From positions 1-42,074 of the forward strand of contig WTCB01000067.1 in NCBI GenBank assembly GCA_013138765.1: 42,074 nt of DNA. The letters are read 5' to 3'. Positions 18,001 to 42,074 of this stretch are shown here, one piece after another (position 1 is the first letter of the stretch; every line of letters begins with the position of its first letter). This DNA comes from Candidatus Nanohaloarchaea archaeon (GTDB taxonomy: Archaea; EX4484-52; GLR71). Under the pieces are notes generated by a model. It was not told the DNA's origin. It worked only from the letters and a program-made list of their open reading frames with translations, and searched no databases. Position numbers and translations under genes: made by a program.

Positions 18001-21000
18001 ATTCGAGAGCTCTTGAGGTTAATACAACAGCTGCATATCCCGCTTTATGGAATGTGTCGCCATCACAATGGAGTATGGGCGACATAATCAACACACCATA
18101 TACCGGTGAGGCAGTCTTGTCTATACCTAAAGATGTGATTGGTGTATATTATATTAATTTCACATCAAACTGGACAAATTATGATGGTACAAATGATACA
18201 CTTATGACACCTATCAAAATAGTTATAGGTTCTAATCCGGAGCTTAATGTGACTGATGGACCAGCATTGCTTGTGATTGAAAGCGGTAAATCTGCAAGCC
18301 AGAATTTGACGCTTGAGTCAATCGGTAATGATAATGCATCGGATATACAGTTCAATTGTACAGGCGGGATTGCTTGTGCGGATTTCAATGCGTCTTTTGA
18401 TCCAGCAACAATCATGACACTCAATAAAAGTGATAGTGCCAATTTCACAATCAATATTTCTGTTCCTATAGGTTATTCGACAGGTGTATATGATGGGATA
18501 TTTAATGTCTATACAGCTAAGACAAATACATCTGTGAACATTACGGTCGTAATACCTGCTAATCTGACATGGGCACATAATCCAATCATAATATCAAAAG
18601 ATGTCGTTGCAAACACTACAGGTAATTTTGGTTCGGTCCGGGTATCTAACATAGGTAATTTACCATTAGGAGTTTCTGCAAGCGTTACAAATACAACATT
18701 GTTTGCAGTAAATTCTAGTTGGGTTGATTTACCTGTCGGGAATCATTCAGATGCCATGATCAATTATACAGCACCAGAATTATTCAGCCTTAATACTTAT
18801 ACTGCATATTTCCGTACGACTAACATGACAGCATTACCATCAACTCGAGAAACATTATTGAACATAACAATACATCCGTTGTATCTAGACATCCTTTCAC
18901 CTACGTCAATATCTCCAGTGCTGAACGTTTCAGAAGGAAAGAACCTAACTGCTGCATTTAATCTTACTTATGCGTCTGTGCCTTTATCTGATAATGTTAC
19001 ATGGCAGATAAATTTGACCAATGACGGTCTATCACATTTGGTAAACATAACAGATATCAATTATTCTGTCGTATCTAATCTTTGGACAATCAATTTCACT
19101 GCGCCGGATATTCTTGCAGGTGTGGGTTATGATCTGGTGGCCAATGTATTTGATGTGTTAAATAACATCAATGTAATCGCAGCTGAAAAAGATGCAGTCA
19201 TATATGTAGATACTATACCACCAGAGCTTTCAGTAGATATGGTGTCCAGCATAATCAATGGCAGTGCTGTGCCAATATATGTGAATACAACTGATGTTGG
19301 AGGGATGGATTATCTATTGATTGAGATAACAATGCCAAATGGAACTGTGGTCTCATACAATGCAACTCTTATAAGTTCTGTCGGCAATGATTATTTCTAT
19401 AATCTCGACTTTACTGAGACTGCACTTTTAGGTCCATATCCAGCTGTCATAAGTGCATATGATCTTTCAGGTAATGTAAACACAACAAATGCAACATTTG
19501 ATTCGTATCTTCCTACATATTTCAGCGGTTATGCGTATGATCTTGAGAGTGTTGATAATGAGACAGCGGTACCTTTAGAGTTTAATATGTATAAGAACAA
19601 TGTTTTCGAATTGATGCATAATATCAATTCTGATAATGTCACCGGGCTTTATAACGAAAGTGTTTATGTCAGGTTATATGATGTAAGTGTTGATGTATTG
19701 AATGTTACTTTAAACTTCAATGATTTCAGCATGCCTCCCGGCGGTATTTTCAATCCAGTCGTCTTTGGTGATATCCCAGTTTCATTAATTGGTGCGGGAC
19801 CTAAGAAGGCGATATATCTTGATAATGCTATGGATACGAACCCAAATATTATATTTGATTATTCGCCATATGATGATGTGGCTGTAAGTGACCTTGCGGT
19901 GTACCAGTGTGACAATTGGACCATAAAGACAGGATGCGTCAATCAGTGGATAAGAAAGAATGCATCAGTTGATACTTTCTCAAGAACGGTTTCATTTAAT
20001 GCTACAAGTGTGACCGGGGCATATGCGTTAGCACAATATCTCTGCGGGAATAATGTGTGTGAAGCTGATTATGGTGAATCTAACTCAATATGTCCAACTG
20101 ATTGTGTTATAGATGTGCCATCATTCCCACCTATGCCTGCAGTACCAACATCTGGTGGCGGCGGCGGTGCTGGCGATGGTGCAAGTTCCGGTGAAGGTGT
20201 AGGCGCTGGAGACGGTGGTGCTGGTGGAGAAGGTGATTTAACGCCTGAGACTGTAGATGAGGAAGTAGTGCCTATCGAAATAAAATCAACATTGCTTTAT
20301 ATTACGCTTGCTCCGGGCGAGAAATCAATACATTCAATTGAAATCAAGAATAATCAGGATAAAAGAGTAACATCACAGTTAAGTGTAGATGGGTTGATAT
20401 GGGATCTTATTCAGCTTGAGAAAACTGAGATAACGGTTGATAAAAAATCAACAGAGAATGTAAAGATTTCAGCATATGCGTTACCTTCTACAATGCCTGG
20501 GATATATACTGGGGACATTGTCGTAAAGACAGGGACTATGATATATAGGACTCCTGTTACTGTAAAGGTTGAAGTCAAAAAAGAAGCATTGCTGGATGTC
20601 ATAATTGAGACTTTGTCAGATATAGTCAAGCCGGGCGATGAAGTAAAGATTATGGTCACCGTCAAGAACATGGGAGAAACTGAAACTGTTGAAGATATAA
20701 TATTGGAGTATGTAATTAAGAATCTTTATGATGACACTGTCCTTACAACTTATACTGAGACACTTGCAGTCAATCAGTCATTGTCTTATATAAAATCATT
20801 AGAGATTCCAAATATCACTAAAGAAGACCGTTATGTAATCAATGTAAATGCTAAATATGCAAATGGTGATAAATTTGCAACGTCTGCGGCAGTCATTGAT
20901 GTAAGTACAAAACCATGGCCTATCGTAATACTTCTTCGGCTGTCTAAGAGCTGGGTAACTTATGTCATATTGTTGATAGTGTTGCCTGGTCTTTATTTTG

Positions 21001-22139
21001 GACGAAAGGCATATATGTCGTACTTAGATAAGAAGAAGAAGGCTGCAAGATACATATTCCCTATGGATTATTCAAAACTGCCGCAGAAGGGTGAAGAAAG
21101 TGTTAAGGTGGGTAAGATTGCAGAGACTGATGTCAATGCGTATATCAATATAAAGAATCTGACTATGCACTCAATTGCGGCAGGCGGTACAGGTTCAGGA
21201 AAGAGTGTAACTGCCATGTCAACAGCTGAAGAACTTTTAGATTTAGGCCTGCCTGTAGTTGTGTTTGATCCAACAGCTCAATGGTCCGGATTTATAAGGC
21301 CATGCAAAGATCAGCATATGCTTGATCTGTATCCTAAATATGGCCTTAAACCGGAACATGCTAAATCATATAAGACAAACATAATTGTTGTTGAAAGTGC
21401 AGATAGTCTAACTGATGAAGAGATAGATATTCGTCAGTATATGAAACCTGGCGAAATAACAGTATTTGTCATGAGTAAGCTGTCGTCATCAGAACTTGAT
21501 AAGTTTGTAAGGAGGACAATCAAGAGCATATTTGCGATTCAGTGGCCGGAAGCAAAGACTTTGAAAGTGCTTATAGTCTATGATGAGATGCATAGGCTTT
21601 TGCCTAAATACGGTGGTAAGGGCGGTTATCTTGAACTTGAACGTGGATGCCGTGAATTTAGAAAATGGGGTCTTGGTCTGTTTATGATATCTCAGGTATT
21701 GGCGGATTTCAAGGGCGCAATAAAAGCTAATGTCGCAAATGAAATTCAGTTAAGGACAAAGTATAATGGTGATATACAGCGTATCAAGCAAAGATATGGT
21801 CCTGATTATGCTACCCGTGTGGCAAGACTTACAGTCGGTGCAGGACTTATACAGAATCCGGAGTACAACGAAGGTAAACCATGGTTTATCCAGTTCAGGC
21901 CACTCAGACATGACACGGGCAGATTAAGCAATGAGGAGCTTGATGTCTATATGGGCCTGAAGAAATCAATTGATGAGATTGCGTCAAAAATTGCTAAATT
22001 TAAATCAAAAGGTGTAGATACTTATGATATTGAGATAGAACTCAATATGGCCCGTACAAAGTTGCAGCAGGGTGTATTTAAGATGTCTGAAACATACATA
22101 CAATCTTTGAAAGCAAGACTTGAGTCCATGTCATCTTAG
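3..22139 (+). CDS. Giant repeat-rich surface protein, 5'-truncated by the window edge (at least 7,378 codons visible). It comprises a huge N-x-S/T-rich ectodomain, a single TM helix and a C-terminal cytoplasmic FtsK/HerA-superfamily ATPase.
   Basis: The ORF track gives 66..22139, ending at TAG 22137-22139. Translating the same frame from nt 3 to 65 gives INITLADECGLDISNAELNIT with no stop. That peptide matches the recurring 'N(V/I)T.RAN.TSDC' subdomain, so TTG-66 is an ORF-caller artefact and the gene starts upstream of the window. There are no in-frame stops over 22 kb in an AT-rich sequence. Confidence 0.9.
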   Translation: MNITLADECGLDISNAELNITLNNTDVGAADYCTDVINLGSGNYSCEWETTVTGVGRYDVIVKAYNVTYHNNGTITLVDSFRVIPPINNAPNLTNNTMLYDIDGWGATFNFSVEVYDKDYDTVNVSFWISSDNSTWVFEDSKNCTACNEWNQLNFSYDGFSCSDQQEWYYKFNATDYENDTELSGVNFTVEKDDVTVVYSVGGGNATYVNRTSPGTTQLIFSVFDADNVSNPVLSAGSNGSFWVSYNDTTYDTGYFNQTNSTGNLNYIFKPSCSPKYAIGPQNWTGGIKGDTCYFDTNDTESLIVYVVGEMNETLVTPLGGDFFENDNVSIRVNLTQECDVADIVVDAAVDFSVHHDTYSATCSVVNEADGNYNCTWNVTGAPGGWYNITVNSTRQYLNSISKLKINSFFHQINPVIFDASADKSSVVWGNDPAKSQVTFTVNVTDDDDTVDVYLWESLGSATGPWTLADQTTCVDCINTTKTFTRTYSACGEIGTWYWKINASDTDTLSDEEPVYNFNVTKRAVYFVHDSGNNTDVVRTGTNTTTLKVRAFDNYTDANLGSGMQGYFWVTTNGTATEIWGNQLSDTTDFQGYVEYDFEPGCSSPLYLTGTQDWKAGIMGGSCYLDTNSTFFELDINGSLSNSLDVPVPTERYEKETDMTFFGTLSDDCTATTGTYVSSADTVKFDVTGVNTYLCSAFTDFGNGTYSCDWNNIGPFLGLHNVTLNSTKAYYDASSVLVEEAFRIGIAPEMGETYVDVLSDGWGYNYTFKVEFRDMEPDDTDNITFYKAYSDAGPWYTVASEERFNGVSWSNITFNKIFDCSDLISGPYLYYKFNVTDSFGFTDESVIKNITLEKDDIDVIYISGEYVSIDREGSDSAYFKVLINDTDFGTVVAGDINATVWKTFDAASYDSGNATVTDANGYVNYSFDPDCGYSTSDAQYWLIGTTGNTCYANKNMTVPKQFAIVGQLKNNLYRPLQSSVFNVTDGVFFNVSTTTDCPAEGAQTGASVILNLTHSGSTTYECSPVNDEGTGVYNCTWDSTAKLEGNYTVNMTSTLVNYNLNNTWWTERFWLENKNTTYDNESVTPLSGGWSRNFTFNLSVLDIEADDVTCTLFTNTTGTWVERGQSIVTGGVGNCSILVWDFTPTDVGSASYKFMVEDAEISNTFNTTVFTGLTITKPVVSVTFESLNDTAVNRSDGSDTLVVRVYDTENKSYVNNSNVTFWVTTDGLNIDAGSVFTTNVTGHASFAFTPTCTPYYEAGHQLWLAGVTDDNYVNSNTTLNYTTTIYGQMTNLVSSPAGEKYLRGEENVTIRANITSDCSSLETMNETSVNFTITSQHTGTSYGCTTEIYNETTGYYNCTFDTGGKEPRGYNITMNSTQEFYLIDISTDVYSAGVESFWIETRPTLVAPNITPVSGGWGERHYFTVNSTDYDLDTLIVKAWFRKDGDSYAPANSLTNNTISGVDQYVTFSPKIFGTSDADTTWYYKFNVTASDGDGYTNETIEQSFYVEPDTTYLEYITGNNTIVNRSALPTDPDYNVTFMFRAWDVDKDPDAIIIGKKIKFYVTDDTVSNYRPYPALPTSYLYTNATGYQKYVFEPDCSYDVGPQKWKAGILDNPEFNSTNSSDFYFNITTVPLAAMLDYPIGAITFEKGVDNILLRGNVSDDCGLVSGANVNISVMQGGTTYAECYPAGDEMSGWYNCTIANTIHNTWPVGLYNVTIKADKAYYNDSDIFVVENAFRLVTRPVLSNPTATSTQGGTLGGWGELWTFTVDIQDPDFDSSNVSFWINRTGSWEFMDSVIWAQGNPTITFADKTFSCSGAVDLGVKQYKFNVSDDYDYTDEISSAMTLEKDDTDAIPTGTGGQSVDRNGTVTILLQTQLMDTDKGYSAVGPGVDGKVWITVNGSDVGSFDDGYALQTDASGYLNYNFDINCSYTTGEHAWMGGTSGSACYKDSAYPTEYFDSLGKLYTDVESPVNGSSYGTGTPVFFRVNVTSDCVDEGLIDSELKGIELQSPSSSWTSCSPINSEGGADLGWYNCTWDSTFKEPGNWTIRTNASNDTYYTAVNTWVDHFELLNNPPSYSDMDGTPDTGAWGTVYTFSVNFTDSDADDVDCDLYVTTDNGATWVLRNSTTLASPAVCNLTVSDFDCGDIGTDNYFKFGLDDGYNPINTTNVSGPNITVNNIEMIYVDGNDQDVDRSYGTLPLKVYVNDTIKGGSVSPAVAVYFNITIDGSTYVLDGSNTTSNGNATYEFTPSCSYYPGEQMWYAEVNDSCYTPKNTTEYNLTVYGTLTNTLDVPTGVEYFLNNNITLRANVTSDCAAEVMNETDVTFRYFRTGYSSTCPVNNESTGYYNCTFNNTGMPPGYYDFEMNSSQSFYNTDSRVFSYVYGISSFWLETLPILTAPTVSPGVGGWGETFYFVTNATDRDLDTMTVRLWLRKMPGGSWIMKNSTTAQGINQTVNLSTKFPSGGDMGDWEFNFTVTADDSWDVYGTQNVSFTVEANDVRIEILSGNDSIVNRSSLPGNSNPDVTFSVRIFDDDRDVLILDPVNTRFYVTKDGSNFETLATVSNDTSEFYVTLDPDCTYGIGPQMWKVSSVFSGNSWYKLTNTTDQNFNITTIPLSANIAEPNGITRVRGVDDIFIRVNVTDECGLVAGASSVVVVERSAIPYFTCPPDATMSDEANGYYNCTVPSASTTIWTTGEYDVKIDSSKAYYNSSVTYLKNNAFRLVTVSKLDNPVITSVSSIGSSDYGWGEDWTFEVDVLDEDNDNVNVYLWVNLTGSWELLNSTVCTNCGGSTHTISFTGHDFLCTDIGTPDFKFNVSDDYSYTNETAGTFNIIKDDTITYYGLIGDSSQIDREGNDAETFSIKIRDADVGAYVGTTIPNSTGKIFVTTDGATYDAGTSNTTNALGYLYYTFDPDCSYEVGAQKWYGGPRDDACYKDSNSPVFDTSLVGQLKSSIINPVYSSSVFVGSIVNLNASIFDECLVPVSGVSITHEAVSPFNIFEDIVPVVNNSVGHYNSTWDTMFHQGGNWSFRINASKINHYGNSTIFSNWTYLNNTVPVAENFTVSPEVEGWGRVYTYGVQIYDTQFDNITCDLYVSTDNGALWVLKNSTFIETVPTSGYANCTLSASDFDCSEIGTDNMYKFQIFDGTNKFNTSSISGPNLTVDTVSIEYIYGNDSIVNRSGAQTTLFSTRVLDVDKGSIPVMDSSSVTFWTTYDNAVYNTGSSVSTNSTGYADYIFNPACTPIKYEVGPQYWVAGVTDSCYSDINTSSNYTTTIYGSMDNQILSPLGTKFIEGIDNVTIRSNVTSDCSLEETMNETLVNFTMTSQYLGTQYGCTTEVYNETTGYYNCTFETSGKDPREYNITMNSTQMYYITNVTTSSYSSGTSSFRIENIPVMTAPTVSPGVGGWGEIFYFATNVTDADDDIMTVRLWLRKKPSGSWILKNSTTVQGSDVVVNLSTKFISGNDIGDWEFNYTVTADDSWDVYGTQNVSFTVEPNDVRIELISGDNSIVNRSSLPGNSNPDVTFVVSVFDDDRDILIADPANTRFYVTKDGINFTTLATVSNDSGYFYATLDPDCTYDVGPQMWKASSVFSGNSWYKMTNSSDFSFNITTVPLSANMVQPDGITRVRGVDDIFIRGNVTDECGLVDGASSVFTVEKSEIPYFTCPPDATVFDEDNGYYNCTVPSASTSGWSPGDFDVKIETSKAYYNSSETVTSANAFRLVTVPEVDNPVITTTSTMGISDFGWGEDWKFEVDIFDDDNDDVNVYLWVNLTGDWELLNSTVCTNCGGTTHTISFSGHDFVCSDIGTRDFKFNVSDDYSYINETSGAFNIIKDDTITYYGSVGDGSQIDREGNDDELFAVRVRDADVNAYAGSTIPAATGKIFVTTDGSTYDAGTSNTTDPSGYLYYTFNPDCSYGVGAQTWYGGPAGDSCYKDSNSPVFDTDFIGQLKSGIINPVYGSNIFVGNIVNFNTSIFDECIVPVSDVTITHEAASPFNLFEDIAPAVNNSIGHYNSTWDTMFHQGGNWSFRINASKTDYYSNSTIFSNWTYLNNTPPTVENFTVSPDVEGWGRIYAYEAQISDTQFDNITCDLYVSTDNGGSWILKNSTFIETVLTGGNANCTLSSSDFDCSEIGTDNMYKFQIYDGTNKFNTSSKSGPNLTTDTVSIEYLYGNDSVVNRSGNQITLFSARVLDVDKGSIPVMNDSSVTFWTTHNNVVYNTGIVISTNSTGYADYQFNPTCSPVNYGVGPQYWKAGVTDSCYAQTNFTQENYTTTIVGDLINTIENPAYGTEYLRGENVTLSSVTSPTITDDCLLGLENINNDITFYNEYGVANYSCSSEEVAGGYYTCTRNTTDMVARFYDTEMISWEPYYNNGTILLQDHIFVKTVPNMTDEVAITSVGGWGETFYFSVNVTDEDLDNVTLNLYVKDTASGFWGAPKNSTVLYSPQGEYVTLSWSDAPYCTVGIWEYRFEASDTHGDVSFTDSHNFTIEKDDVEVQYSFGDGSYVWRNGSDSTTLTLDIVDSDRNNLSVGTGTSARFWVTTDANDSGSWDIGKDTATLDGEIDYYFMQQFPEGGQKCDYTVGIQKWKGGIFNDICYKDKNSTEYDLSVNSSLVPNVTNVYSQGYLRGDHIPLLTSVYDDCGPVSNVTLSYSLLNMPNQYVCDKQNNVGWNESDGDYNCTWDSTNKPYKWYNVTASVSKEFFVPNMTSGNDRFFLGITPQLESLSVYPEVGGWGENHQFNVRLTSFDLATNNVSLWKSFDNVSWDLVNWQTVIMPIGQWVQFNERFTCNDYLTPPSGVNYYKIISENVFGFSSETLVYNYTLEYDNITLVITPATNDTVRRLGADDAFLEARIYDTDYGVYQNNTDANIWVTKDGATFSYNESCSSDDGYCGIIYNPQCDSGVGLQNWKIEVYDSCYQNINSTDVTLSVIGQLYSNVINPSLDDILNKNTTTSFNTTVFDDCDNNILDASVSWYNSTPILLGTGYNVSWNIPLNYTKGPETIITNSTRQYYDYGFNTTDVLVYGFSEISKILPLNLSSYLAGYDVPVQCIVIDANTTENLTDYNVSFYKNDVFQSSNLTDLNGTALWMWVTDSEPYGWYNISCKISNDDTLYYTPAVSYANTTVRVNRTLMIQSIVLSNPDIYRNDSFTPYDTNITVNIYDALFGPADNADVWFYNSTGFMDNCTTDAFGNCHIGYNAPDNITPQGYAVYVNATKAGLENSTTDNTTIGVYGLLYINITGPADDSSWSKAITLNLSSYIENENGYIDTATVDWYIDSGFVATGQNTTYPLVSQMPGPKTLQSNATRPYYVTGTDNISLNINGLVDVMWWFPLNGSKQAYPGSFDVQCLVKDNTSGLSVEGYAVDFWYLNDSSYVYNGTYATNELGLAGFTWYPESKGVLDFKCNITDNATVFYSPNIGEAFATIIIEDINPPAITNISIIPNKTIEANLNYTNITAVVTDDILVYSVIASITLPNGTVVNETMNNIFNDTYRVEYLSPIGGNYSVDIVASDSPPENNTNAVYAGNISVWGKADMVGERTDEYVAFGITQVSGESFMLTVNATNNGPANAYDVSITVTEDPIGTVTYNTTNYDCGNLSVGEMCSRDFLVTVPPKTAPQLITVYSTIWWDNPDKTPNSTVGITLIDVASNPVIDILEAFIQNQTVHGETTTIGTLTVSSAGNDYVDNIVLDKVGDTLALSCPLCNLTISKSTEETLPAGDYFISEISIDIPYGQSAGDYWTYVSAKSDNAPQDLVIVNATVPLDVTWERVPTTFGTILALVNTDTTLIGTITAKNNGNSERNMIVQSGGNGSLFVTKSPGSFTMGIGVSANVTINYSIPALTTQGMYYVQVHIRDSTADPADGITDFWLNVTDLPPVISNLSIVPLGYEPDVGHSNITAQVTDNVLVSQVWLNSTKPNGSEFIDYFTLNGSDAYLNYSENEIGVHKVKICANDTANLISCTQAYNISVMVNTTVVTETNITNVTIYGVLFDSGLNVTFNFTTFNAGYSRALEVNTTAAYPALWNVSPSQWSMGDIINTPYTGEAVLSIPKDVIGVYYINFTSNWTNYDGTNDTLMTPIKIVIGSNPELNVTDGPALLVIESGKSASQNLTLESIGNDNASDIQFNCTGGIACADFNASFDPATIMTLNKSDSANFTINISVPIGYSTGVYDGIFNVYTAKTNTSVNITVVIPANLTWAHNPIIISKDVVANTTGNFGSVRVSNIGNLPLGVSASVTNTTLFAVNSSWVDLPVGNHSDAMINYTAPELFSLNTYTAYFRTTNMTALPSTRETLLNITIHPLYLDILSPTSISPVLNVSEGKNLTAAFNLTYASVPLSDNVTWQINLTNDGLSHLVNITDINYSVVSNLWTINFTAPDILAGVGYDLVANVFDVLNNINVIAAEKDAVIYVDTIPPELSVDMVSSIINGSAVPIYVNTTDVGGMDYLLIEITMPNGTVVSYNATLISSVGNDYFYNLDFTETALLGPYPAVISAYDLSGNVNTTNATFDSYLPTYFSGYAYDLESVDNETAVPLEFNMYKNNVFELMHNINSDNVTGLYNESVYVRLYDVSVDVLNVTLNFNDFSMPPGGIFNPVVFGDIPVSLIGAGPKKAIYLDNAMDTNPNIIFDYSPYDDVAVSDLAVYQCDNWTIKTGCVNQWIRKNASVDTFSRTVSFNATSVTGAYALAQYLCGNNVCEADYGESNSICPTDCVIDVPSFPPMPAVPTSGGGGGAGDGASSGEGVGAGDGGAGGEGDLTPETVDEEVVPIEIKSTLLYITLAPGEKSIHSIEIKNNQDKRVTSQLSVDGLIWDLIQLEKTEITVDKKSTENVKISAYALPSTMPGIYTGDIVVKTGTMIYRTPVTVKVEVKKEALLDVIIETLSDIVKPGDEVKIMVTVKNMGETETVEDIILEYVIKNLYDDTVLTTYTETLAVNQSLSYIKSLEIPNITKEDRYVINVNAKYANGDKFATSAAVIDVSTKPWPIVILLRLSKSWVTYVILLIVLPGLYFGRKAYMSYLDKKKKAARYIFPMDYSKLPQKGEESVKVGKIAETDVNAYINIKNLTMHSIAAGGTGSGKSVTAMSTAEELLDLGLPVVVFDPTAQWSGFIRPCKDQHMLDLYPKYGLKPEHAKSYKTNIIVVESADSLTDEEIDIRQYMKPGEITVFVMSKLSSSELDKFVRRTIKSIFAIQWPEAKTLKVLIVYDEMHRLLPKYGGKGGYLELERGCREFRKWGLGLFMISQVLADFKGAIKANVANEIQLRTKYNGDIQRIKQRYGPDYATRVARLTVGAGLIQNPEYNEGKPWFIQFRPLRHDTGRLSNEELDVYMGLKKSIDEIASKIAKFKSKGVDTYDIEIELNMARTKLQQGVFKMSETYIQSLKARLESMSS
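4191..7160 (+). repeat. Three-module (~3 kb) super-repeat, oldest and most diverged copy
   Basis: It starts at the boundary motif FWIETRPTLVAP..GGWGE. Its module order (A-type 'LW.RK', B-type 'VNV..W.N.TG.WE', C-type 'CDLYV.TDNG') is the same as in the next two units. Unit length is 2970 nt. Confidence 0.7.
7161..10151 (+). repeat. Three-module super-repeat, copy 2 (2991 nt)
   Basis: It starts at FWLETLPILTAPTVSPGVGGWGETFYF. It is colinear with 10152-~12800 at roughly 80% nucleotide and 80-85% amino-acid identity by eye. The G-W-G anchors 7221/8235/9204 lie exactly 2991 nt from 10212/11226/12195. Confidence 0.85.
10152..13133 (+). repeat. Three-module super-repeat, copy 3 (2982 nt)
   Basis: It starts at FRIENIPVMTAPTVSPGVGGWGEIFYF. 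High identity to copy 2 extends to about nt 12800. The last C-subdomain (12800-13133) is diverged. Confidence 0.85.
14889..16265 (+). repeat. Two copies of a ~160-aa bi-domain unit (14889-15375 and 15789-16265), separated by an unrelated ~138-aa beta-rich segment
   Basis: By-eye alignment of ASVSWYNST...VQCIVIDANT...YNISCKISNDDTLYYTP with TATVDWYIDSG...VQCLVKDNTS...LDFKCNITDNATVFYSP. The shared W-Y, ATR.YY, VQC.V.D and C.I....FY.P positions line up. Confidence 0.5.
16266..18877 (+). repeat. Two tandem ~440-aa cassettes (16266-17594 and 17595-18877). Each is a 'D.PP.I.N.S..P' Ig-like domain followed by three CARDB/ASH(PapD)-like beta-sandwich domains. A third PP-type Ig-like domain starts at 19206.
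   Basis: Parallel motifs in both cassettes: EDINPPAITNISIIP / TDLPPVISNLSIVP / VDTIPPELSVDM; SNPVIDILE / SNPELNVTD; L(T/E)(V/S)..(A/I)GND..(D/N); and 'G.Y...(V/F)...' domain endings. Confidence 0.6.
20043..20105 (+). other. Four-Cys motif CGNNVCEADYGESNSICPTDC. It belongs to the CG.G.CE....E....CP.DC class common in archaeal and bacterial secreted proteins.
   Basis: Direct translation. The codons are in frame with the giant ORF. Confidence 0.7.
20154..20237 (+). other. Gly/Ala/Asp/Glu low-complexity linker (GGGGAGDGASSGEGVGAGDGGAGGEGD)
   Basis: Direct translation. This is the only G+C-rich stretch in the gene. Confidence 0.8.
20949..21002 (+). other. Single predicted transmembrane helix of the giant protein (SWVTYVILLIVLPGLYFG)
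   Basis: A hydrophobic run is followed immediately by RKAYMSYLDKKKKAARY, consistent with the positive-inside rule. N-x-S/T sequons are very dense before it and nearly absent after it. Confidence 0.75.
21180..21206 (+). other. Walker A / P-loop (AGGTGSGKS)
   Basis: Direct translation, matching GxxGxGK[ST]. Confidence 0.9.
21567..21593 (+). other. Walker B-like strand (VLIVYDEMH), of the hhhhDE.H type found in HerA
   Basis: Direct translation. It lies about 120 residues after Walker A. Confidence 0.7.
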
Positions 22140-30455: not shown

Positions 30456-30478
30456 AAGTATCTTTTAATATTGTTACA

Positions 30479-30486: not shown

Positions 30487-30563
30487 GCTGTATGTTTATT
30501 TTATAATTAATTAGCATTATCTGGTTTATATTTATTGATCTATGATTGTAAATGTGATGTTTT

Positions 30564-31671: not shown

Positions 31672-32220
31672 ATGGGAAAATCATCAAAAAAACAAATTAA
31701 GATAAATTTTACTAAATATGTCTCAATAACTATTGGTTTTTTGTTAGTAATCTTTCTATTTTTTGCAATTTTTTCGACACCATCTTTTGAATCGGATAAT
31801 CATGTCTTAAATCATACAGTCATACACGCAGAAGATTTATTTTTTACTTATGAAGTTGATAAATATCCAACTGCTGTGGAGATAAGCAATATTACAGAAC
31901 GTAATTTATCGATAGGTTTTTCACTTGAAACATCAAGCCTTAATTTTGGTGTGGTCCCGACTGGAGGCAATATGGGGAAACGTTTTTTGACATTAAAAAA
32001 TACAGAAGAGAACAATGCAAAGATACAGTTTGTTGCATATGGCGATATATCGCAAATGATACAGTTTAGTGATAATGATTTCAATTTAGTCTCTGATGAA
32101 CTTAAACAGGTTGATATAGTTCTTGAAACAGAGTTGGATACACAGGTAGGAAATTATTCGGGTGAAATAGACCTAGTTATCAAAAGAGCTAAATATGGTT
32201 TTTTAGAGTGGTTTATATGA
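31672..32220 (+). CDS. 182-aa N-terminally anchored protein with one ASH/PapD(MSP)-like beta-sandwich
   Basis: The first ATG in the ORF is used; the track's start at 31663 is a GTG. The TM is YVSITIGFLLVIFLFFAIF. The motif LNFGVVPTGGNMGKRFLTLKNTEENNAKIQF....GNYSGEIDLVI fits the 'l.FG.v..g....k.l.l.N.......i.f' class. Confidence 0.75.
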   Translation: MGKSSKKQIKINFTKYVSITIGFLLVIFLFFAIFSTPSFESDNHVLNHTVIHAEDLFFTYEVDKYPTAVEISNITERNLSIGFSLETSSLNFGVVPTGGNMGKRFLTLKNTEENNAKIQFVAYGDISQMIQFSDNDFNLVSDELKQVDIVLETELDTQVGNYSGEIDLVIKRAKYGFLEWFI

Positions 32221-32244: not shown

Positions 32245-33009
32245 ATGTTTGGAAATAGATATTTTTCATCAATTGTTTTGGTTGTTCTTTTAGTATCTAT
32301 GACTTTTGCATACGGTACTGCTGTAAACATCAATGTTGCGGAATTTTTAGATTCTACATCAAAAGAGATTGATTGCTGTAATCTGGATGATAAAGTGATG
32401 ACTGCAAGCTATGATGTCTTTAATTCTGGAAGCATTGCATATGCTGCACGCATCAGGATGGATGTTTTTGATGAAGGAGAGATGGTCACATCAATATGGA
32501 GCCGTGAATATCGTATTAATCCTGCTCAAAGAGAAACAATAGATCTGTATTGGTATGAACAATCAGATAAAATACTTTTTGCAAATGCTAAATTATATAG
32601 GGCATATGATATTTTAGATATTGGAAATGTTACCTGGGAATTTAATGAGGCAGAGGTATCTCAAAGTGTGAATGATCTTGAGAGTCTGATTGGGTTTGAT
32701 AAGATCTGTGTGTATGATAATAAAATAAAATTTGAGATCACAACAGATGAAGATATTGAAAAAATGATAATATATCCAATACAGTATACAAAAGGATGGA
32801 TTTTTGAGCAGACAGTTGTTAATGATGTAATTTCTGGTAAATCAAAGAAAGTCTCAATAGATTATGATACAGGGGCATTTTTTGAAGATGAGATTACATT
32901 GATTGCAGTAAGTTCTGATGGCAGATATTATGGTGAAAAAACATTTTTACTCAAAAAAGAAGTCGGGCTTAAAAAATGGTTTAATATGTTTATGGATGCG
33001 TTGAATTAA
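32245..33009 (+). CDS. 254-aa secreted protein (signal peptide, no membrane anchor) with CARDB-like beta-sandwiches
   Basis: ATG 32245 lies 6 nt after GGGTG (32234-32238). The signal peptide is FSSIVLVVLLVSMTFAYGTA. The ORF-track start at 32236 is a GTG that overlaps the SD-like site. Confidence 0.75.
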   Translation: MFGNRYFSSIVLVVLLVSMTFAYGTAVNINVAEFLDSTSKEIDCCNLDDKVMTASYDVFNSGSIAYAARIRMDVFDEGEMVTSIWSREYRINPAQRETIDLYWYEQSDKILFANAKLYRAYDILDIGNVTWEFNEAEVSQSVNDLESLIGFDKICVYDNKIKFEITTDEDIEKMIIYPIQYTKGWIFEQTVVNDVISGKSKKVSIDYDTGAFFEDEITLIAVSSDGRYYGEKTFLLKKEVGLKKWFNMFMDALN

Positions 33010-38319: not shown

Positions 38320-38980
38320 TCTGTTATTGGCTGCAATATTATTTGCAGCCATTATATTTTTGGAACCTGTGAGCGCATTTAATCTTGGTACTCTACAGAA
38401 ATCTGCAAGTCAGAATGTTACTTCGGGTGACACCATTTCGTTTGAACTTCTGTTCTGGAACATCTATGATGAGGGTTATGATGTTGTTTTAGAAAATGTT
38501 AAAGTACCTAAAGACTGGGTTGTCATTGTTGACCCTTCTTATTTTTATTTAGATAACAGGTCTTTTTTTGATGTTGAACATATATATATTCCCAGCATTA
38601 GAAAAACAATAAATGCATATCCTGTGACGGTTTATGTATCCGTTCCAAAAGCTGAAGCGTACGGGGATCATGAAATAGTATTGAAAGCTGTTGCGGGTCA
38701 AGGGGAGAGTCAATCAGGTTTTTCTTTGAAGCAGGAACGTCTGTTCTTTTTTGATGTTTTTGTGACAAAAGATTTATATCAGGATAGACCTAATGATGAT
38801 GCAGTAACTAAAAGTGTTTCTGTTGATATAAGCCCTATGATCTCGCATCAAGAACTGGGTGTGTCATCTACAGAAATATCATCTACTGATTTTTTATATC
38901 AACATATAAAAACGGGTATTATATTGATTAGTTTTGTTTTAATCTTAATTATTGCATGGAGGATATACGAATATGATTGA
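38300..38980 (+). CDS. 226-aa secreted, C-terminally TM-anchored NEW3/CARDB-like beta-sandwich protein
   Basis: The ORF-track start at 38195 would overlap the previous gene by 125 nt. ATG 38300 has an SD and gives a clean signal peptide (MEIRNHNLLLAAILFAAIIFLEPVSA|F). The C-terminal anchor is TGIILISFVLILIIAWRIYEYD. Confidence 0.8.
   Translation: MEIRNHNLLLAAILFAAIIFLEPVSAFNLGTLQKSASQNVTSGDTISFELLFWNIYDEGYDVVLENVKVPKDWVVIVDPSYFYLDNRSFFDVEHIYIPSIRKTINAYPVTVYVSVPKAEAYGDHEIVLKAVAGQGESQSGFSLKQERLFFFDVFVTKDLYQDRPNDDAVTKSVSVDISPMISHQELGVSSTEISSTDFLYQHIKTGIILISFVLILIIAWRIYEYD
38958..38962 (+). promoter_or_regulatory. Shine-Dalgarno-like GGAGG
   Basis: It lies 10 nt upstream of ATG 38973. That ATG overlaps the upstream stop codon (ATGATTGA). 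Confidence 0.55.
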
Positions 38981-40298
38981 CAAGAGATATCTTATTTTTT
39001 TTATTGGTATAATTGGTCTATCTGTTTTTTTTCAGGGTCAGCCATCAATTACTGGAAACATACTTTTAAGTGAAGTAAATGTATCTATAAATTCTTTTGA
39101 CAATGGCCAGATCAGTTATTTTAATTATCCCGATAGGATTACACAATATTCAAAGGTTAATATCGGTGCTGAATTTTTAAATACTGGAAGTACTTCATAT
39201 ACAAAAGAGATATTGTTGCAGATTGGTGTATATGGAGATAATATGACAGTTGTTGCAAACCGTACAGGGCTTACAGTGGTCATGAAACCCGGGGACAGAA
39301 GTTTTGATAAGTTAAGTTATACGCCACTCTATTATGGTTTTTATTGGATGCATCTGATTGTTTCATACGGAAATAAAACTGATGAGGCGTGGGGTACTTT
39401 TTATGTTGACCCATATTATATTATTGTGATACCACCTAACGTCACTGAAGATGATGGTCCCGGCGGCCCTTTAGATTCCGAAGCTATTTCAGGAGGTTCA
39501 GGAGATGAGTTAGGTTCTGAAGGGGGCATGAGCGATAGTTTAGATCTTGCTTCTTTGTTAGATTCTGGAATTTATGATACTGGAAGGACATTAGTTACAA
39601 TCTCAAATCCGGATAAGATATATGTACGTCCCGGTGAGTCAACCGCAGTTTATGTCATAGTAAATAATACGGGTACAATGACTTTGAGGAGGATGATGCT
39701 TTTACCGCGCAGTATGAGCGGAATTAAAGTTGATGCGCAACCGAGAAATATACAAATATTAAAAGGTACACAGTCGGCGATATTTATGATAACTGTCGAT
39801 GTTCCTGCTGACATTCTTAACCGTACATACCCATTGGATTTTAAGGTCTTGTTTGATAAGGGAAATCGTACAGGTCATGTTGATGTTGTTGTCGGTCCAC
39901 GTCTGGATGAAGACCTTATGGATACAATACTTAATTATAGATATATCATAACACGATTAAAAAGTGAAAGCGATACACTTTATTTTGACGGTAAAAACAC
40001 AAGTCTTCTTGAAAATTATATATCTTTAGCTGATTCTGATCTTGTAATTGCAAAAGATGATTATGATGTGGAGGATTATGATTCTGTTCGGGAGTACCTT
40101 AAGAGAACAAAATTGCATTTAGACGATGCTGTGCTTGAACTTGCGAGTCTAAGGAGTGAAACAATGATTATTGTGTTTGCACCCAATATCTGGCTTTTGA
40201 TTGTGCTGGCAATTACAATGATTACGGCGATAGGTGTAGTCTATGCACATAGACATAATCTGAAAAAAGTTGTTAAAGAAGCAGAGGACGGAATTTAG
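38973..40298 (+). CDS. 441-aa surface protein. It has a signal peptide, a CARDB-like domain, a G/D/S/E linker, a NEW3/CARDB-like domain, a helical stalk and a C-terminal TM.
   Basis: The N-terminus is MIDKRYLIFFIGIIGLSVFFQG. The linker is TEDDGPGGPLDSEAISGGSGDELGSEGG. The TM is IIVFAPNIWLLIVLAITMITAIGVVYA followed by HRHNLKK. The stop is TAG at 40296-40298. Confidence 0.8.
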   Translation: MIDKRYLIFFIGIIGLSVFFQGQPSITGNILLSEVNVSINSFDNGQISYFNYPDRITQYSKVNIGAEFLNTGSTSYTKEILLQIGVYGDNMTVVANRTGLTVVMKPGDRSFDKLSYTPLYYGFYWMHLIVSYGNKTDEAWGTFYVDPYYIIVIPPNVTEDDGPGGPLDSEAISGGSGDELGSEGGMSDSLDLASLLDSGIYDTGRTLVTISNPDKIYVRPGESTAVYVIVNNTGTMTLRRMMLLPRSMSGIKVDAQPRNIQILKGTQSAIFMITVDVPADILNRTYPLDFKVLFDKGNRTGHVDVVVGPRLDEDLMDTILNYRYIITRLKSESDTLYFDGKNTSLLENYISLADSDLVIAKDDYDVEDYDSVREYLKRTKLHLDDAVLELASLRSETMIIVFAPNIWLLIVLAITMITAIGVVYAHRHNLKKVVKEAEDGI

Positions 40299-40334: not shown

Positions 40335-40338
40335 AAAC

Positions 40339-40348: not shown

Positions 40349-40370
40349 GATTATAGTTTAATTATATATT

Positions 40371-42074
40371 ATGGCATTAAAAGATAATCCAGTCATTTAC
40401 TTGACATATACCATGTGGAAATATTCAAAAGGCAACAGAAAAAATGTCATCTTATATTTTCTGATGTTTGTGATGGCAAACATAGTCAATCTGCTTGAAC
40501 CATTGGTCATTGCAAAGATATTGAACACTATACAGATTCAAGGGGTGGGTGCAGCAAATCTTAACACTATTCTATTTTATATATTTCTTTTTGTAGTCAT
40601 CTCTATTATGTTTTGGCTGTTCCATGGTCCTGCAAGAGTATTGGCATTCAACAACGCATTCCTTGTCCGCGCAAACTACAAAAAATACTTGCTTGACGGC
40701 ACAATGTCACTTTCTGCTCAATGGCACACTGATCATCATTCCGGCGATACTATAGACAAAATAGAAAAAGGCACAAATGCCCTGTACAGATATTCATCAT
40801 ATATATATGAAGTCATTGAGACAATAATACGGTTCATCGGTTCATATATTGCTCTTGTATACTTCAATCCCCATTCAAGCTACATTGTGCTTTTCATGAT
40901 CATAATCACTTTAGAAATAATCATCAGATTTGACAGAAAACTTATAAGACAATACATAAAGCTTAACAATGCAGATAACAGAATATCAGCAAAGATATAT
41001 GATACCATAAGCAACATAACTACAGTCATCATATTGAGGACTGAAAACCTTATATCAAGATCAGTATTCAAGAATATCATGGAACCGTTCAGGCTTTTTG
41101 TAAAAAATCATAGATTGAATGAGATCAAATGGTTCCTCGTATCAACATGTACATCCCTTATGAAGTTTCTTGTGCTTGCGACATACATATTCTTTAGCGT
41201 AAAATCAGGTTCAACTGTACTTGTAGGCAGTATCTATGCACTTTACGGTTATGTGAATAAGATAAACCAGCTGTTTTTTAGGTTTGCTTACAGGTATGGT
41301 GAGATTGTGCGCGAGAGGACCGCTGTCATGAATGCTGAAGAGATATCAGATGAATTTGAAAAGATAAAGGTGCATGAGATTAAACTAATCAAAAAAGATT
41401 GGAAAGAATTAAAGGTAGAAAACTTAAAATTTTCATACCACACTGAAGAGGGCTGTGACTTGCATCTTGATAATGTATCGTTATCAATTGAAAATGGTAA
41501 AAGGATTGCTGTGATTGGTAAAAGCGGTAGTGGTAAGACAACGTTACTTAAGATAATACGACAATTATACAAGCCTACACATGTAGACTTATCTGTTGAC
41601 AAAAGACACCTTGAAAACGGTTTTCAAGACATAAGCTCATCGATCGCCCTCATCCCACAGGATCCTGAAATATTCTCGACAACAATAAAAGAAAACATCA
41701 CAATGGGTGTGGGTCACAGCAAAGATGAAATCAAAAAGTATACCGACATGGCATGTTTTACGGATGTCATTGTGCGTCTGCCAAAAAAACTCGAATCATC
41801 AATTGTCGAGAAAGGCGTAAACCTGAGCGGTGGCGAGAAACAGCGCCTGGCTCTTGCGCGTGGGCTTATGGCCTGTAAAGACAAGTCAATCATATTGCTT
41901 GACGAGCCGACAAGCAGTGTTGACTCAAAGAACGAGATTGACATATACAGGAATATTTTTTATGAGTTTGGTGACAGGACAATCATATCATCAATCCACA
42001 GGCTTCATCTTCTGCCCATGTTTGACATGATATACTTTTTCGATGACGGTAAAGTCATTGCGGAAGGTTCATTT
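40371..42074 (+). CDS. ABC exporter with fused permease and ATPase (MsbA / type IV exporter architecture), 3'-truncated by the window edge
   Basis: It is not in the ORF track because no stop is reached. I translated 568 codons from ATG 40371 with no stop. The ~300-aa N-terminal half is multi-TM. It is followed by Walker A GKSGSGKTT (41517-41543), the ABC signature LSGGEKQR (41823-41846), Walker B IILLDEP (41889-41909) and an H-loop (SSIHRL). Confidence 0.9.
   Translation, partial: MALKDNPVIYLTYTMWKYSKGNRKNVILYFLMFVMANIVNLLEPLVIAKILNTIQIQGVGAANLNTILFYIFLFVVISIMFWLFHGPARVLAFNNAFLVRANYKKYLLDGTMSLSAQWHTDHHSGDTIDKIEKGTNALYRYSSYIYEVIETIIRFIGSYIALVYFNPHSSYIVLFMIIITLEIIIRFDRKLIRQYIKLNNADNRISAKIYDTISNITTVIILRTENLISRSVFKNIMEPFRLFVKNHRLNEIKWFLVSTCTSLMKFLVLATYIFFSVKSGSTVLVGSIYALYGYVNKINQLFFRFAYRYGEIVRERTAVMNAEEISDEFEKIKVHEIKLIKKDWKELKVENLKFSYHTEEGCDLHLDNVSLSIENGKRIAVIGKSGSGKTTLLKIIRQLYKPTHVDLSVDKRHLENGFQDISSSIALIPQDPEIFSTTIKENITMGVGHSKDEIKKYTDMACFTDVIVRLPKKLESSIVEKGVNLSGGEKQRLALARGLMACKDKSIILLDEPTSSVDSKNEIDIYRNIFYEFGDRTIISSIHRLHLLPMFDMIYFFDDGKVIAEGSF

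Follow-up and report, generated by a model that had tools for sequence, protein, structure and literature searches.

The window analysed here is the whole 42,074-nt contig WTCB01000067.1 (assembly GCA_013138765.1) of a Candidatus Nanohaloarchaea archaeon (GTDB EX4484-52; GLR71), and all locations are given on its forward strand. The original prediction was of eleven co-directional genes, spaced by −26 to +115 nt and forming a single operon. All eleven + strand ORFs were found at the predicted sizes in the ORF listing of the window, and nine of the ten junctions agree with the predicted spacing (43, 5, 115, 24, 14, −26, −20, −8 and 72 nt), with overlapping start and stop codons at three of them. 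However, the junction between the 1,972-aa and 330-aa genes is 465 nt long (30099–30563), and a conserved gene on the opposite strand (30093–30455) lies inside this gap and breaks the array. The array thus comprises twelve genes in at least two transcription units, rather than one eleven-gene operon. The predicted features are as follows:

3..22139, + strand: giant SPEARE-type protein, at least 7,357 aa; ORF open from nt 3
20922..20978, + strand: single TM helix of the giant protein, aa 6953–6971 (hydropathy scan)
20979..22136, + strand: cytoplasmic HerA/FtsK-superfamily ATPase and C-terminal helical region (Pfam DUF87, PDB profile)
22183..24174, + strand: cytoplasmic coiled-coil partner, 663 aa (synteny; no TM segment)
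24180..30098, + strand: second large surface protein, 1,972 aa (Pfam, AF2 and Foldseek, topology)
30093..30455, − strand: small membrane protein with HExxH, 120 aa (conservation in relatives)
30564..31556, + strand: 330-aa WxLIP/PapD-like protein (AF2 and Foldseek)
31663/31672..32220, + strand: 185/182-aa anchored beta-sandwich protein (synteny, profile)
32236/32245..33009, + strand: 257/254-aa secreted protein (synteny, topology, hhalign)
33018/33024..35828, + strand: 936/934-aa Ig-like protein (synteny, topology; CarboxypepD_reg below cutoff)
35803..38319, + strand: 838-aa secreted sequon-rich protein (Big_13 domain, synteny)
38300..38980, + strand: 226-aa anchored beta-sandwich protein (hhalign, synteny)
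38952/38973..40298, + strand: 448/441-aa anchored two-domain protein (profile cross-matches, hhalign, synteny)
40371..42074, + strand: ABC exporter, truncated by the contig end (ABC_membrane and ABC_tran)

Because the contig begins inside the giant ORF, 7,357 aa is a minimum length and the N-terminus is missing. Its ectodomain consists of 15 tandem supermodules of ~330 aa (aa 1 to ~4950) and then ~2,000 aa of non-repeated Ig-like domains, and is followed by one TM helix and the cytoplasmic HerA-like ATPase. The position of the TM helix matches that in both short and giant homologues. The protein has 4.9 NxS/T sequons per 100 aa, and the ectodomain is 33–41% identical across the whole 10-kb flank in ~80 species, a moderate conservation that would suit a housekeeping function in the envelope no less than host binding. 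Walker A (AAGGTGSGKS) and Walker B (DE) motifs lie at ~21183–21203 and ~21582–21587 respectively, and the catalytic residues are invariant in 12/12 diverse homologues. The ATPase matched DUF87 in Pfam (1.4e-9), HerA 4d2i in a profile search of the PDB (1e-9) and HerA in PADLOC (5.5e-16); in NCBIfam the HerA and CedD matches were partial and all family-specific models were far under their cutoffs. These matches indicate that the ATPase is HerA-like, its nearest relatives being HerA proteins. The same architecture is seen in the 8,880-aa giant of Ca. Nanohalovita, which has been described as SPEARE-type (PMC6642349, PMC10266531), and the two ATPase domains are 46–47% identical. The giant ATPase fusion had been put forward as the core of a new apparatus; judged by its sequence, it falls instead in the published SPEARE family (PMC6642349, PMC10266531), a kind of protein already described in Nanohaloarchaeota.

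The 663-aa coiled-coil protein has a conserved central domain, low-complexity linkers, and SHOCT-like modules at its N-end (~22231–22380) and C-end (~24070–24171). No TM segment was found by hydropathy scan, and no Pfam family was matched. The 1,972-aa protein is predicted to consist of a signal peptide, a galactose-mutarotase-like supersandwich tip (AF2 model of moderate confidence, pLDDT 67), MG2 and NEW3 Ig-like domains, a TM helix (29781–29837) and an 86-aa cytoplasmic tail. Within this tail (~29892–30074) lies a ~55-aa module that is common to both ends of the coiled-coil protein. Alignment of the tail with the coiled-coil N-end scored 97.1% by hhalign (E 6.6e-11), and a second hhalign score for the shared module was 88.7%, compared to ≤11% for controls. 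An interaction between tail and coiled-coil protein, as originally suggested, gains support from a module common to both.

The opposite-strand gene (motif HESIH) is 60–70% identical in five relatives. It has the same position in loci L083, L090, L091 and L093, with which the window also shares its full gene order, and its presence marks a predicted boundary between two transcription units. Its product weakly matched the zincin family DUF3267 in Pfam (E 0.001). An HExxH family adjoins the 1,950-aa gene in 18 other loci and is likened to it as analogous only. The gene was absent from the gene set of the original prediction.

The seven smaller genes have a fixed order and encode paralogous Ig-like proteins, most of which are membrane-anchored and sequon-poor, with two secreted without an anchor. 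Over the whole cluster the proteins fall into two sequon-density classes, and their topologies are conserved. The most conserved small component is the 330-aa protein, whose family comprises 157 clusters at E≤1e-30. Behind its signal peptide come two beta-sandwich (Ig-like) domains, and a TM helix at the C-terminus anchors it. Its AF2 model (pLDDT 84) gave WxLIP 9i1y as the best Foldseek match (E 1.3e-11) and also matched FimC-type chaperones, with modest TM-scores of 0.41–0.53; the modelled fold is WxLIP/PapD-like, with tandem Ig-like domains and a TM helix. The 185/182-aa protein is anchored in the membrane by its N-terminus and has a single beta-sandwich domain, and its profile weakly matches giant proteins (E 3e-8). 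The 257/254-aa protein has a signal peptide only, without an anchor. Two domains of other members are paralogous to it, domain 2 in the 330-aa protein and domain 1 in the 448-aa protein (hhalign 98.3% and 93.4%). Ig-like domains also make up the 936/934-aa protein, between a signal peptide and a C-terminal TM helix with a low-complexity cytoplasmic tail. The 838-aa protein has 5.7 sequons per 100 aa, internal repeats and Big_13, and an N-terminal signal but no other anchor. A signal peptide and a C-terminal TM anchor flank the single beta-sandwich domain of the 226-aa protein, a paralogue of domain 1 of the 330-aa protein (hhalign 96.8%). The 448/441-aa protein has two beta-sandwich domains as well as a helical hairpin, with a signal peptide at one end and a TM anchor at the C-terminus, and its C-terminal cassette is common to the 936-aa and 1,972-aa proteins (profile cross-matches 1e-15 and 1e-32; hhalign 97.9%).

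Several other elements of the original prediction were borne out. The signal-peptide and TM topologies agree with the hydropathy scan, and the substantial cytoplasmic regions claimed for three membrane proteins extend 386 aa (giant), 86 aa (1,972-aa) and 183 aa (936-aa) past the last TM helix, the last of these being a lineage-specific expansion (family median 55 aa). The paralogous domain cassettes are seen in the profile cross-matches and hhalign comparisons, and Pfam and NCBIfam searches give no catalytic domain besides the ATPases.

Conservation of gene neighbourhood across relatives, proposed as a test of the original prediction, was strongly positive, with the 663-aa and 1,972-aa genes 3′ of the ATPase in most of 80 species-representative loci. 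The coiled-coil gene was present downstream in 75/76 loci, and the ~1,950-aa gene in 41/52 loci with room; the coiled-coil gene is also 3′ of the ATPase in Nanohaloarchaeota, ‘Nanoarchaeota’ and ‘Micrarchaeota’ loci. A second set of metagenome loci was anchored on the 330-aa gene. There the 185-aa gene came next in 65/65 loci with room, and the 257-aa gene (48/50), the 936-aa gene (30/33) and MinD (22/26) were likewise retained. A secreted ~295-aa gene was directly upstream in 36/40 loci and the 1,950-aa gene upstream in 17/27. Among the loci longer than 15 kb, the 838-aa and 226-aa genes were each found in 10/11 and the 448-aa gene in 9/11.

In many metagenomic loci the seven smaller genes are directly 3′ of the 1,972-aa gene, and a recurrent supercluster reads coiled-coil, HExxH, 1,950-aa, secreted ~295-aa, 330-185-257-936, MinD, 838-226-448, MinD. 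The relatives’ clusters thus contain one or two MinD/ParA-type ATPase genes; the window has neither the MinD nor the secreted ~295-aa genes present in most relatives. In some genomes the seven-gene module is separated from the giant gene and adjoins the genes for RNase P Rpp14 and KsgA. Gene order kept across relatives argues for a dedicated multi-component module over random adhesins, as had been claimed. The ABC exporter had been counted as a member of the system, but no homologue was found in 175 related loci (0/175), and relatives have other genes after the 448-aa gene. It is probably an adjacent neighbour and not a component.

With a probability of about 0.6, the window is a compact version of this conserved supercluster and encodes one membrane-anchored cell-surface apparatus. 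Aenigmatarchaeota-like DPANN archaea share the supercluster, and several DPANN phyla share its first two genes. The predicted core unit is the giant fibre tied to its ATPase by one TM helix, together with the coiled-coil protein and the ~1,950-aa surface protein. We infer that the apparatus serves host attachment and may also carry out ATP-driven translocation. In the HerA/FtsK superfamily pumps generally form rings, and the HerA-like ATPase would form a ring as its relatives do, so several fibres would be clustered at one site. The coiled-coil protein may connect this ring to the 1,972-aa tail through the shared module. The anchored Ig-like proteins would form a membrane-proximal base holding the anchorless subunits, possibly by beta-strand insertion. 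Host contact would be made by the exposed, heavily glycosylated parts, namely the giant and 838-aa proteins and the 1,972-aa protein, whose tip is carbohydrate-binding-like. At the contact site, ATP hydrolysis may power mechanical work or the translocation of a polymer (nucleic acid or protein). The cluster has no polytopic channel-forming protein and each component adds one TM helix, so the translocation path is hypothetical.

A housekeeping role is possible but unlikely. Here the giant, 1,972-aa and Ig-like proteins would be the cell’s own S-layer-like coat or sheath, and the ATPase, the coiled-coil protein and the relatives’ MinD would organise envelope growth or division. Nearly all Aenigmatarchaeota-like loci contain the cluster, its protein lengths are conserved, and 33–41% ectodomain identity over thousands of residues exceeds expectation for fast-evolving host-specific adhesins. 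MinD/ParA genes inside the relatives’ clusters and dense N-glycosylation sequons, which are typical of archaeal wall proteins, point the same way. However, we know of no S-layer protein fused to a HerA-type ATPase, and a tandem-repeat fibre of 7,000–9,600 aa is not lattice-like. The Nanohaloarchaeal counterpart has been tied by its authors to host interaction, albeit without genetic proof (PMC6642349, PMC10266531).

We consider it improbable that the locus serves Ced-type nucleic-acid uptake, in which host DNA or RNA would be drawn by the HerA-like ATPase into a symbiont that cannot synthesise nucleotides, with the surface proteins serving for contact alone. Most HerA/FtsK relatives pump DNA, and CedD, a DNA-translocating ATPase, is partially matched in NCBIfam (E 5.9e-10), but the score is 38 bits against a family cutoff of 600. 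Although DNA uptake has been suggested for SPEARE proteins (PMC6642349), the cluster has no CedA-like polytopic channel protein, and no nuclease or DNA-binding domain was found in it by Pfam and NCBIfam. Slightly less probable again is a type IV secretion-like ‘straw’, with a VirB4/TraG-type motor injecting effectors into the host through the giant protein, as published for the homologous Nanohaloarchaeal proteins (PMC10266531). The motor is membrane-anchored and weakly matches TraC, TraD and IcmO/DotL; profile searches nevertheless group it with HerA, VirB4 being absent from the PDB matches and IcmO reaching only E 0.007. The VirB4 N-terminal domain was not found in Pfam or NCBIfam, no VirB6-like polytopic protein, VirB3, VirB8 or pilin was seen in the window and 175 related loci, and tandem Ig-like domains offer no obvious conduit. 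Finally, that these are unrelated adhesin genes which happen to be neighbours on one strand of a small genome is scarcely credible and is contradicted by the conserved gene order: separate promoters at least at 30456–30563, the unlinking of the seven-gene module from the giant gene in some genomes and the unrelated ABC neighbour would agree with it, but gene order is held to ~30% protein identity in dozens of loci, sub-blocks are rearranged yet still adjacent, and a cytoplasmic module and domain cassettes are common to the components.

The preferred reading, a single membrane-anchored surface apparatus, can be compared with several known systems. RTX-type adhesins with a type I secretion ABC transporter (LapA, SiiE) likewise combine a giant repetitive adhesin-like protein and an ABC exporter in one array. 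However, the giant protein of the window is anchored by its own TM helix and not secreted, the window has no membrane-fusion or outer-membrane partner, and the ABC gene is missing from all relatives. A MinD/ParA gene inside a cluster is typical of spatially positioned envelope machines such as those guided by TadZ/CpaE (Tad pili), FlhG (flagella) and BcsQ (cellulose synthase), and the relatives’ clusters hold such genes, whereas the window has no MinD and no pilus, flagellum or synthase components.

WxL/Csc clusters of Firmicutes (PMC10599100; PDB 9i1y, 9i25) contain the best structural match of the 330-aa protein, WxLIP, and the window similarly encodes small and large anchorless secreted proteins beside anchored ones. 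It differs in having no DUF916/DUF3324 sequence match, no WxL domain and no docking domain common to its two anchorless proteins (hhalign), and TM-scores are only 0.41–0.53. Archaea also lack peptidoglycan, the ligand of WxL domains. The Ced ATPase, EssC/EccC (type VII), VirB4/VirD4 and FtsK/SpoIIIE are membrane-held RecA-type P-loop ATPases of the same superfamily as that of the window. Unlike in these translocases, a giant ectodomain and a single TM helix precede the ATPase of the window, which has no partner channel protein and scores far under the cutoffs of all family-specific models.

The SPEARE giant surface proteins of Nanohaloarchaeota (Hamm et al. 2019, PMC6642349; re-analysed by Reva et al. 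2023, PMC10266531) share with the window giant a multi-thousand-residue adhesion/Ig-like ectodomain, one TM helix near the C-terminus, a cytoplasmic P-loop ATPase with C-terminal coiled coil, and a coiled-coil gene downstream. Pfam searches of the window gave neither the serine protease nor the toxin-like regions that have been reported for the Antarctic SPEARE protein. In the Nanohalovita locus (L002) a second, short ATPase paralogue, also reported for Nanohalococcus (PMC10266531), is directly 3′ and is absent from the window, whereas the window has the 1,950-aa gene and seven-gene module that L002 lacks. The partner genes of the giant protein appear to be undescribed, neither SPEARE paper (PMC6642349, PMC10266531) discussing them, and they are testable candidates for host attachment in a DPANN symbiont.

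The window spans an entire MAG contig of 42,074 bp. It was predicted to hold a single operon of eleven co-directional genes, running from a giant ATPase fusion protein to an ABC exporter. All eleven forward-strand ORFs were present with the predicted sizes, and nine of the ten intergenic distances were as given, but the 1,972-aa and 330-aa genes are separated by 465 nt and not by 115 nt or less. A 120-aa ORF lies in this gap on the opposite strand, breaking the proposed uninterrupted operon, and the array therefore comprises twelve genes in at least two transcription units. The first unit encodes the giant, a 663-aa coiled-coil protein and the 1,972-aa protein, while the second contains a module of seven genes (encoding proteins of 330, 185, 257, 936, 838, 226 and 448 aa). 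The opposite-strand gene is as follows:

30093-30455, minus strand: small membrane protein of 120 aa with an HExxH motif (HESIH) and a weak DUF3267 zincin match (E 0.001)

This gene and the stop codon of the 1,972-aa gene overlap by 6 nt, and five relatives carry a 60-70% identical copy at the same position. The product may act as a membrane-embedded metallopeptidase in the processing of a surface component. Homology to a family of HExxH proteins of ~154 aa, encoded elsewhere beside the 1,950-aa gene (the counterpart of the 1,972-aa gene), was not supported by hhalign (1.4%). Pfam agreed with the identity of the ABC exporter. However, a homologue was found in 0 of 175 related loci (designated by L and a number), and the exporter is therefore a neighbour of the cluster rather than a component of it. 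As predicted, Pfam and NCBIfam revealed no catalytic domain in the window proteins apart from the ATPases. No tRNA genes or Rfam families were found in the window, and PADLOC detected no defence-system context for the cluster. In NCBI (locus tags GQ477_*) the contig is named 'Nanohaloarchaea archaeon', and its closest homologues are from Aenigmarchaeota- or Aenigmatarchaeota-labelled genomes (92% identity) and the 'Nanobdellati archaeon' MAG KA24 (93%). The taxonomic label of the contig is probably wrong.

The reading frame of the giant gene is open from nt 3, so the N-terminus of its product is missing. The remaining protein is at least 7,357 aa (relatives have 8,112 to 9,591 aa), and hydropathy analysis gave a sole hydrophobic segment at aa 6953-6971, followed by 386 aa. 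The ectodomain consists of 15 tandem supermodules of ~330 aa (25-35% identity) and then ~2,000 aa of non-repeated domains. Pfam identified only a NEW3 domain in it; serine protease and LamG domains were absent. Three consecutive supermodules (window ~6960-12960, aa ~2300-4300) are 73-82% identical at the amino acid level. This triplet is a recent internal duplication, and is a likely place for assembly collapse or copy-number variation. The ectodomain aligned with those of related loci at 33-41% identity along the full 10-kb flank.

The C-terminal 396 aa of the giant protein form a HerA/FtsK-superfamily ATPase (Pfam DUF87, 1.4e-9). In a profile comparison with the PDB, HerA (4d2i, 1e-9) was the top match, followed by YjgR and defence HerAs; IcmO/DotL reached only 0.007, and VirB4 was not among the matches. 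The motifs GGTGSGKS, DE(x)HR and REFRKWG, which belong to the RecA-like core (Walker A, Walker B and arginine/polar residues), were invariant across 12 diverse homologues. Every curated family model scored far below its cutoff, including that of HerA proper, the DNA-repair helicase, which gave a partial match of 42.7 bits against a cutoff of 800, and no gene for a NurA-like nuclease partner was found in the window or the related loci. PADLOC also matched the ATPase to HerA (5.5e-16) with partner effectors absent; for the anti-phage HerA systems (Sir2, DUF4297 or other effector) the HerA matches were partial and the partner proteins had no PADLOC match. The ATPase is thus HerA-like, the restriction enzyme label is wrong, and an assignment to VirB4 is not clear. 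Its homologues occur in MAGs labelled as several DPANN groups, and include short proteins of ~627 aa in total, which consist of a signal peptide, two beta-sandwich domains, a TM helix and the ATPase.

Conservation of the gene neighbourhood was examined in two sets of loci, with counts that rest on our own ORF calling and on profiles built for this analysis. An ATPase-profile scan of species-representative genomes gave at least 582 loci, and 80 of these were retained; a 330-aa-profile scan of metagenomes gave 187 relatives, from which 80 loci at 28-37% identity were retained. Taxon labels were taken from MAG records, and the metagenomic loci carry no taxonomy. Giant fusions are the rule among the 80 ATPase-anchored loci, because the ATPase ORF exceeds 2,000 aa and reaches the start of the locus in 52 of them. 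Public annotation of one region (L001:1-11776) splits the giant gene into three overlapping ORFs and calls spurious small genes on the opposite strand; in another (L175:1-11101) it gives the ATPase as a separate protein of 366 aa, yet the ORF runs for more than 2,000 aa. Giant fusions are therefore undercounted in annotation-based surveys. The word-indexed protein database yielded only fragments of up to 700 aa for the giant and 1,972-aa proteins, so that full-length fusions are not countable from it.

The predicted conservation of the neighbourhood was borne out. A coiled-coil homologue was found downstream of the ATPase in 75 of the 76 loci with room for it, as the immediate next gene in 66, and a 1,972-aa homologue in 41 of the 52 loci that extend far enough for it, by 8 kb or more (30-38% identity over ~2,000 aa). 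The pair of ATPase and coiled-coil genes was also present in loci labelled Nanohaloarchaeota, Nanoarchaeota and Micrarchaeota. The order of the seven genes was identical in every relative found via the 330-aa protein. In five lineages (the window, L083, L090, L091 and L093) the module comes after the 1,972-aa gene, separated from it by the small opposite-strand gene, while in other relatives its genes adjoin the RNase P Rpp14 and KsgA genes instead. In genomes where the module does not adjoin the giant gene, type IV pilus-like genes (two T2SSF/TadC-like genes, a KaiC-like ATPase and a pilin; L087:419-3815 and L089:1-2481) are located 6-10 kb upstream of the module. Synteny judged by BLAST within 10-kb flanks had made it seem uncommon for the module to come after the 1,950-aa gene. 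Flank length and sensitivity produced this artefact, and profile HMMs on the 330-aa-anchored loci reversed it, with the following counts.

Neighbours of the 330-aa gene in loci with room for them (metagenome profile annotation)
185-aa gene, next to the 330-aa gene: 65 of 65
257-aa gene: 48 of 50
936-aa gene: 30 of 33
MinD gene: 22 of 26
secreted ~295-aa protein gene, just upstream: 36 of 40
1,950-aa gene, upstream: 17 of 27

The recurrent metagenomic order begins with the coiled-coil gene, two small coiled-coil genes, the HExxH membrane protein gene, the 1,950-aa gene and, on the opposite strand, the secreted ~295-aa gene. It continues with the 330-, 185- and 257-aa genes, a ~75-aa ORF, the 936-aa gene, MinD, the 838-, 226- and 448-aa genes, a ~86-aa ORF and MinD. 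Eleven loci exceed 15 kb; of these, 10 carry the 838-aa gene, 10 the 226-aa gene and 9 the 448-aa gene. This block is at times inverted or upstream, yet it remains adjacent. Most relatives have one or two MinD/ParA-type ATPase genes (~255 aa) inside the cluster (L011, L022, L030, L102, L108, L133 and ~50 further loci). The window is a compact variant, having neither MinD nor the ~295-aa gene.

Pfam and PDB profile comparison were uninformative for the coiled-coil protein. However, profile-profile alignment with hhalign matched the cytoplasmic tail of the 1,972-aa family to the N-terminus of the coiled-coil family (97.1%, E 6.6e-11, 57 columns) and to its C-terminus (88.7%). The controls, which comprised reversed sequences, another coiled-coil family, the middle of the coiled-coil protein, the ATPase C-terminal end and the 936-aa tail, gave at most 11%, and the shared module was accordingly not detected by hhalign in the ATPase C-terminal end (11%) or in the 936-aa tail (1% or less). 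Its consensus resembles Pfam SHOCT, but the matches were weak (E 0.029, 1-2 of 21 members), and we call it only SHOCT-like. In one clade (L021, L024, L027, L034, L050, L133 and L173), two small coiled-coil proteins of ~100-150 aa are encoded between the coiled-coil and HExxH genes, and the module is weakly present in them (hhalign 62%). The tip of the 1,972-aa protein was modelled by an AlphaFold-type method (pLDDT 67) as a galactose-mutarotase-like supersandwich, a fold known from accessory domains of glycoside hydrolases and lyases. There was no sign of a catalytic domain in the tip model and, with moderate confidence, the tip is predicted to be a carbohydrate-binding-like supersandwich rather than an enzyme.

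Each cluster protein has at most one anchoring helix by hydropathy. The giant, 1,972-, 936-, 448-, 330- and 226-aa proteins have a C-terminal TM anchor and the 185-aa protein an N-terminal one, while the 257- and 838-aa proteins have a signal peptide and no anchor; these topologies are conserved across the families. The density of NxS/T sequons falls into two classes, a high class comprising the giant, 1,972-aa and 838-aa proteins (4.9, 5.6 and 5.7 per 100 aa respectively) and a low class comprising the 330-, 257-, 226-, 936-, 448- and 185-aa proteins (0.4-2.7), which suggests that the former are exposed and glycosylated and the latter shielded and membrane-proximal. Profile cross-matches and hhalign indicated that the small proteins are assembled from few related domains. 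The 226-aa protein matched domain 1 of the 330-aa protein (96.8%), domain 2 of the latter matched the 257-aa protein and domain 1 of the 448-aa protein (93-98%), and the second cassette of the 448-aa protein matched the membrane-proximal parts of the 936-aa protein (97.9%) and the 1,972-aa family (1e-15). The 330-aa family, with 157 clusters at E<=1e-30, is almost uniformly 300-330 aa long. In an AlphaFold model (pLDDT 84), the 330-aa protein folds into two beta-sandwich domains with a TM helix at the end. The 936-aa protein ends in a cytoplasmic tail (window 35280-35828) that is a 183-aa low-complexity expansion; tails in this family have a median length of 55 aa, and that of the close relative KA24 (L090:13252-16083) carries an NMNMNM repeat.

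Around a membrane-anchored HerA-like ATPase, genes for surface and cytoplasmic proteins are thus conserved and co-located as a set. The most likely way for these parts to work together can be sketched as follows. An ATPase ring, as in relatives, would cluster several giant fibres, and the coiled-coil protein would connect the tail of the 1,972-aa protein with this ring. The Ig-like proteins that have anchors may form a base in which the anchorless subunits are retained. Host binding could fall to the glycosylated parts and the carbohydrate-binding-like tip, ATP hydrolysis could drive polymer translocation or mechanical work, and MinD-type ATPases may position the assembly in most relatives. 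We tentatively propose, with a probability of roughly 0.3, that this is an undescribed ATP-powered DPANN surface organelle, in which a HerA-like ring bundles giant glycoprotein fibres at one membrane site, the coiled-coil protein couples it to a second large surface protein via the shared docking module, a paralogous Ig-like base surrounds it and MinD positions it in most lineages, allowing contact-dependent holding of a host and movement of macromolecules. The main weakness of the mechanism sketched above is that the cluster has no polytopic channel protein and is known here from sequence and models.

The question bears on the means by which DPANN archaea hold on to their hosts and draw material from them, for which SPEARE-type giants are prominent candidates, so far treated as lone genes. 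In Aenigmatarchaeota-like genomes the giant protein lies within a conserved set of ~10-17 genes, the coiled-coil partner is retained across several DPANN phyla, and two components have a common cytoplasmic module. With these findings, what had been one odd gene becomes a defined list of parts that can be targeted in multimer modelling, pull-downs, proteomics and cryo-ET labelling. The searchable literature yielded no account of the conserved partner set, the WxLIP-like component or the cytoplasmic module, though an unannotated Aenigmarchaeota-specific family module of Castelle et al. (PMC8204110) possibly overlaps.

The broad conservation and the MinD genes would also suit a housekeeping envelope scaffold, which, however, does not fit the ATPase fusion or the fibre-like repeats. 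A Ced-like importer of nucleic acids is plausible for this class of ATPase; however, the CedD model gave the window ATPase 38.4 bits against a cutoff of 600, the window has no polytopic CedA-like protein, and no nuclease accompanies the cluster. A type IV secretion system fails on both its ATPase and its channel. The VirB4 N-terminal CagE/TrbE/VirB domain is absent from the window ATPase (Pfam, NCBIfam), the TraC model gave 19 bits against a cutoff of 567, VirB4 is absent from the PDB profile matches, and the VirB6, VirB3, VirB8 and coupling protein families were not found in related loci. Chance adjacency is excluded by the synteny, as the original prediction held in setting the genes apart from a random set of adhesins.

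Among other surface systems, type I secretion of giant adhesins differs in that the ABC gene is missing from the 175 loci and Pfam found no membrane-fusion protein. The archaeon has no outer membrane, and no usher of chaperone-usher pili is present; PapD-type pilus chaperones (FimC-type, E 1e-6 to 1e-7) were weaker fold matches of the 330-aa model. The top PDB match of that model was the Enterococcus WxL-interacting protein (WxLIP; E 1.3e-11, TM 0.41-0.53), which it resembles in fold and architecture, without a DUF916/DUF3324 sequence match in Pfam and without a WxL domain in the window proteins. WxLIP, which has tandem Ig domains and a TM anchor, is proposed to engage its partner via beta-hairpin insertion (PMC10599100). 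A common docking domain, predicted by this analogy for the two anchorless proteins (257 and 838 aa), was not found (hhalign 0.4%).

The closest known system is SPEARE. Hamm et al. reported that the cytoplasmic part is the most conserved region of SPEARE proteins, with relatives in Aenigmarchaeota and other phyla (PMC6642349), and Reva et al. re-interpreted what had been taken for a restriction domain in it as a secretion-type ATPase (PMC10266531). The coiled-coil gene and any other partner are absent from the discussion in both papers. The original definition included serine protease and laminin-G/adhesion domains, which the window ectodomain does not have, but their family-defining status is disputed (PMC10266531). 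In Ca. Nanohalovita haloferacivicina, an 8,880-aa giant protein of the SPEARE family has the same C-terminal architecture as the short homologues, ending in the same ATPase domain, and its gene is followed by a short paralogue and then by a gene for a 518-aa acidic coiled-coil protein. The paralogue (L002:10001-11887, CP107255; 628 aa, with signal peptide, two beta-sandwich domains, TM helix and ATPase) begins 1 nt inside the end of the giant gene, and such a second ATPase is absent from Aenigmatarchaeota-like loci. The Nanohaloarchaeal ATPase regions are 46-47% identical to that of the window over 95-98% of its length. Like SPEARE proteins, the window giant is very long and lies mainly outside the cytoplasm, with a single TM helix close to the C-terminus and its C-terminal region in the cytoplasm, and it is a new member of this published family.
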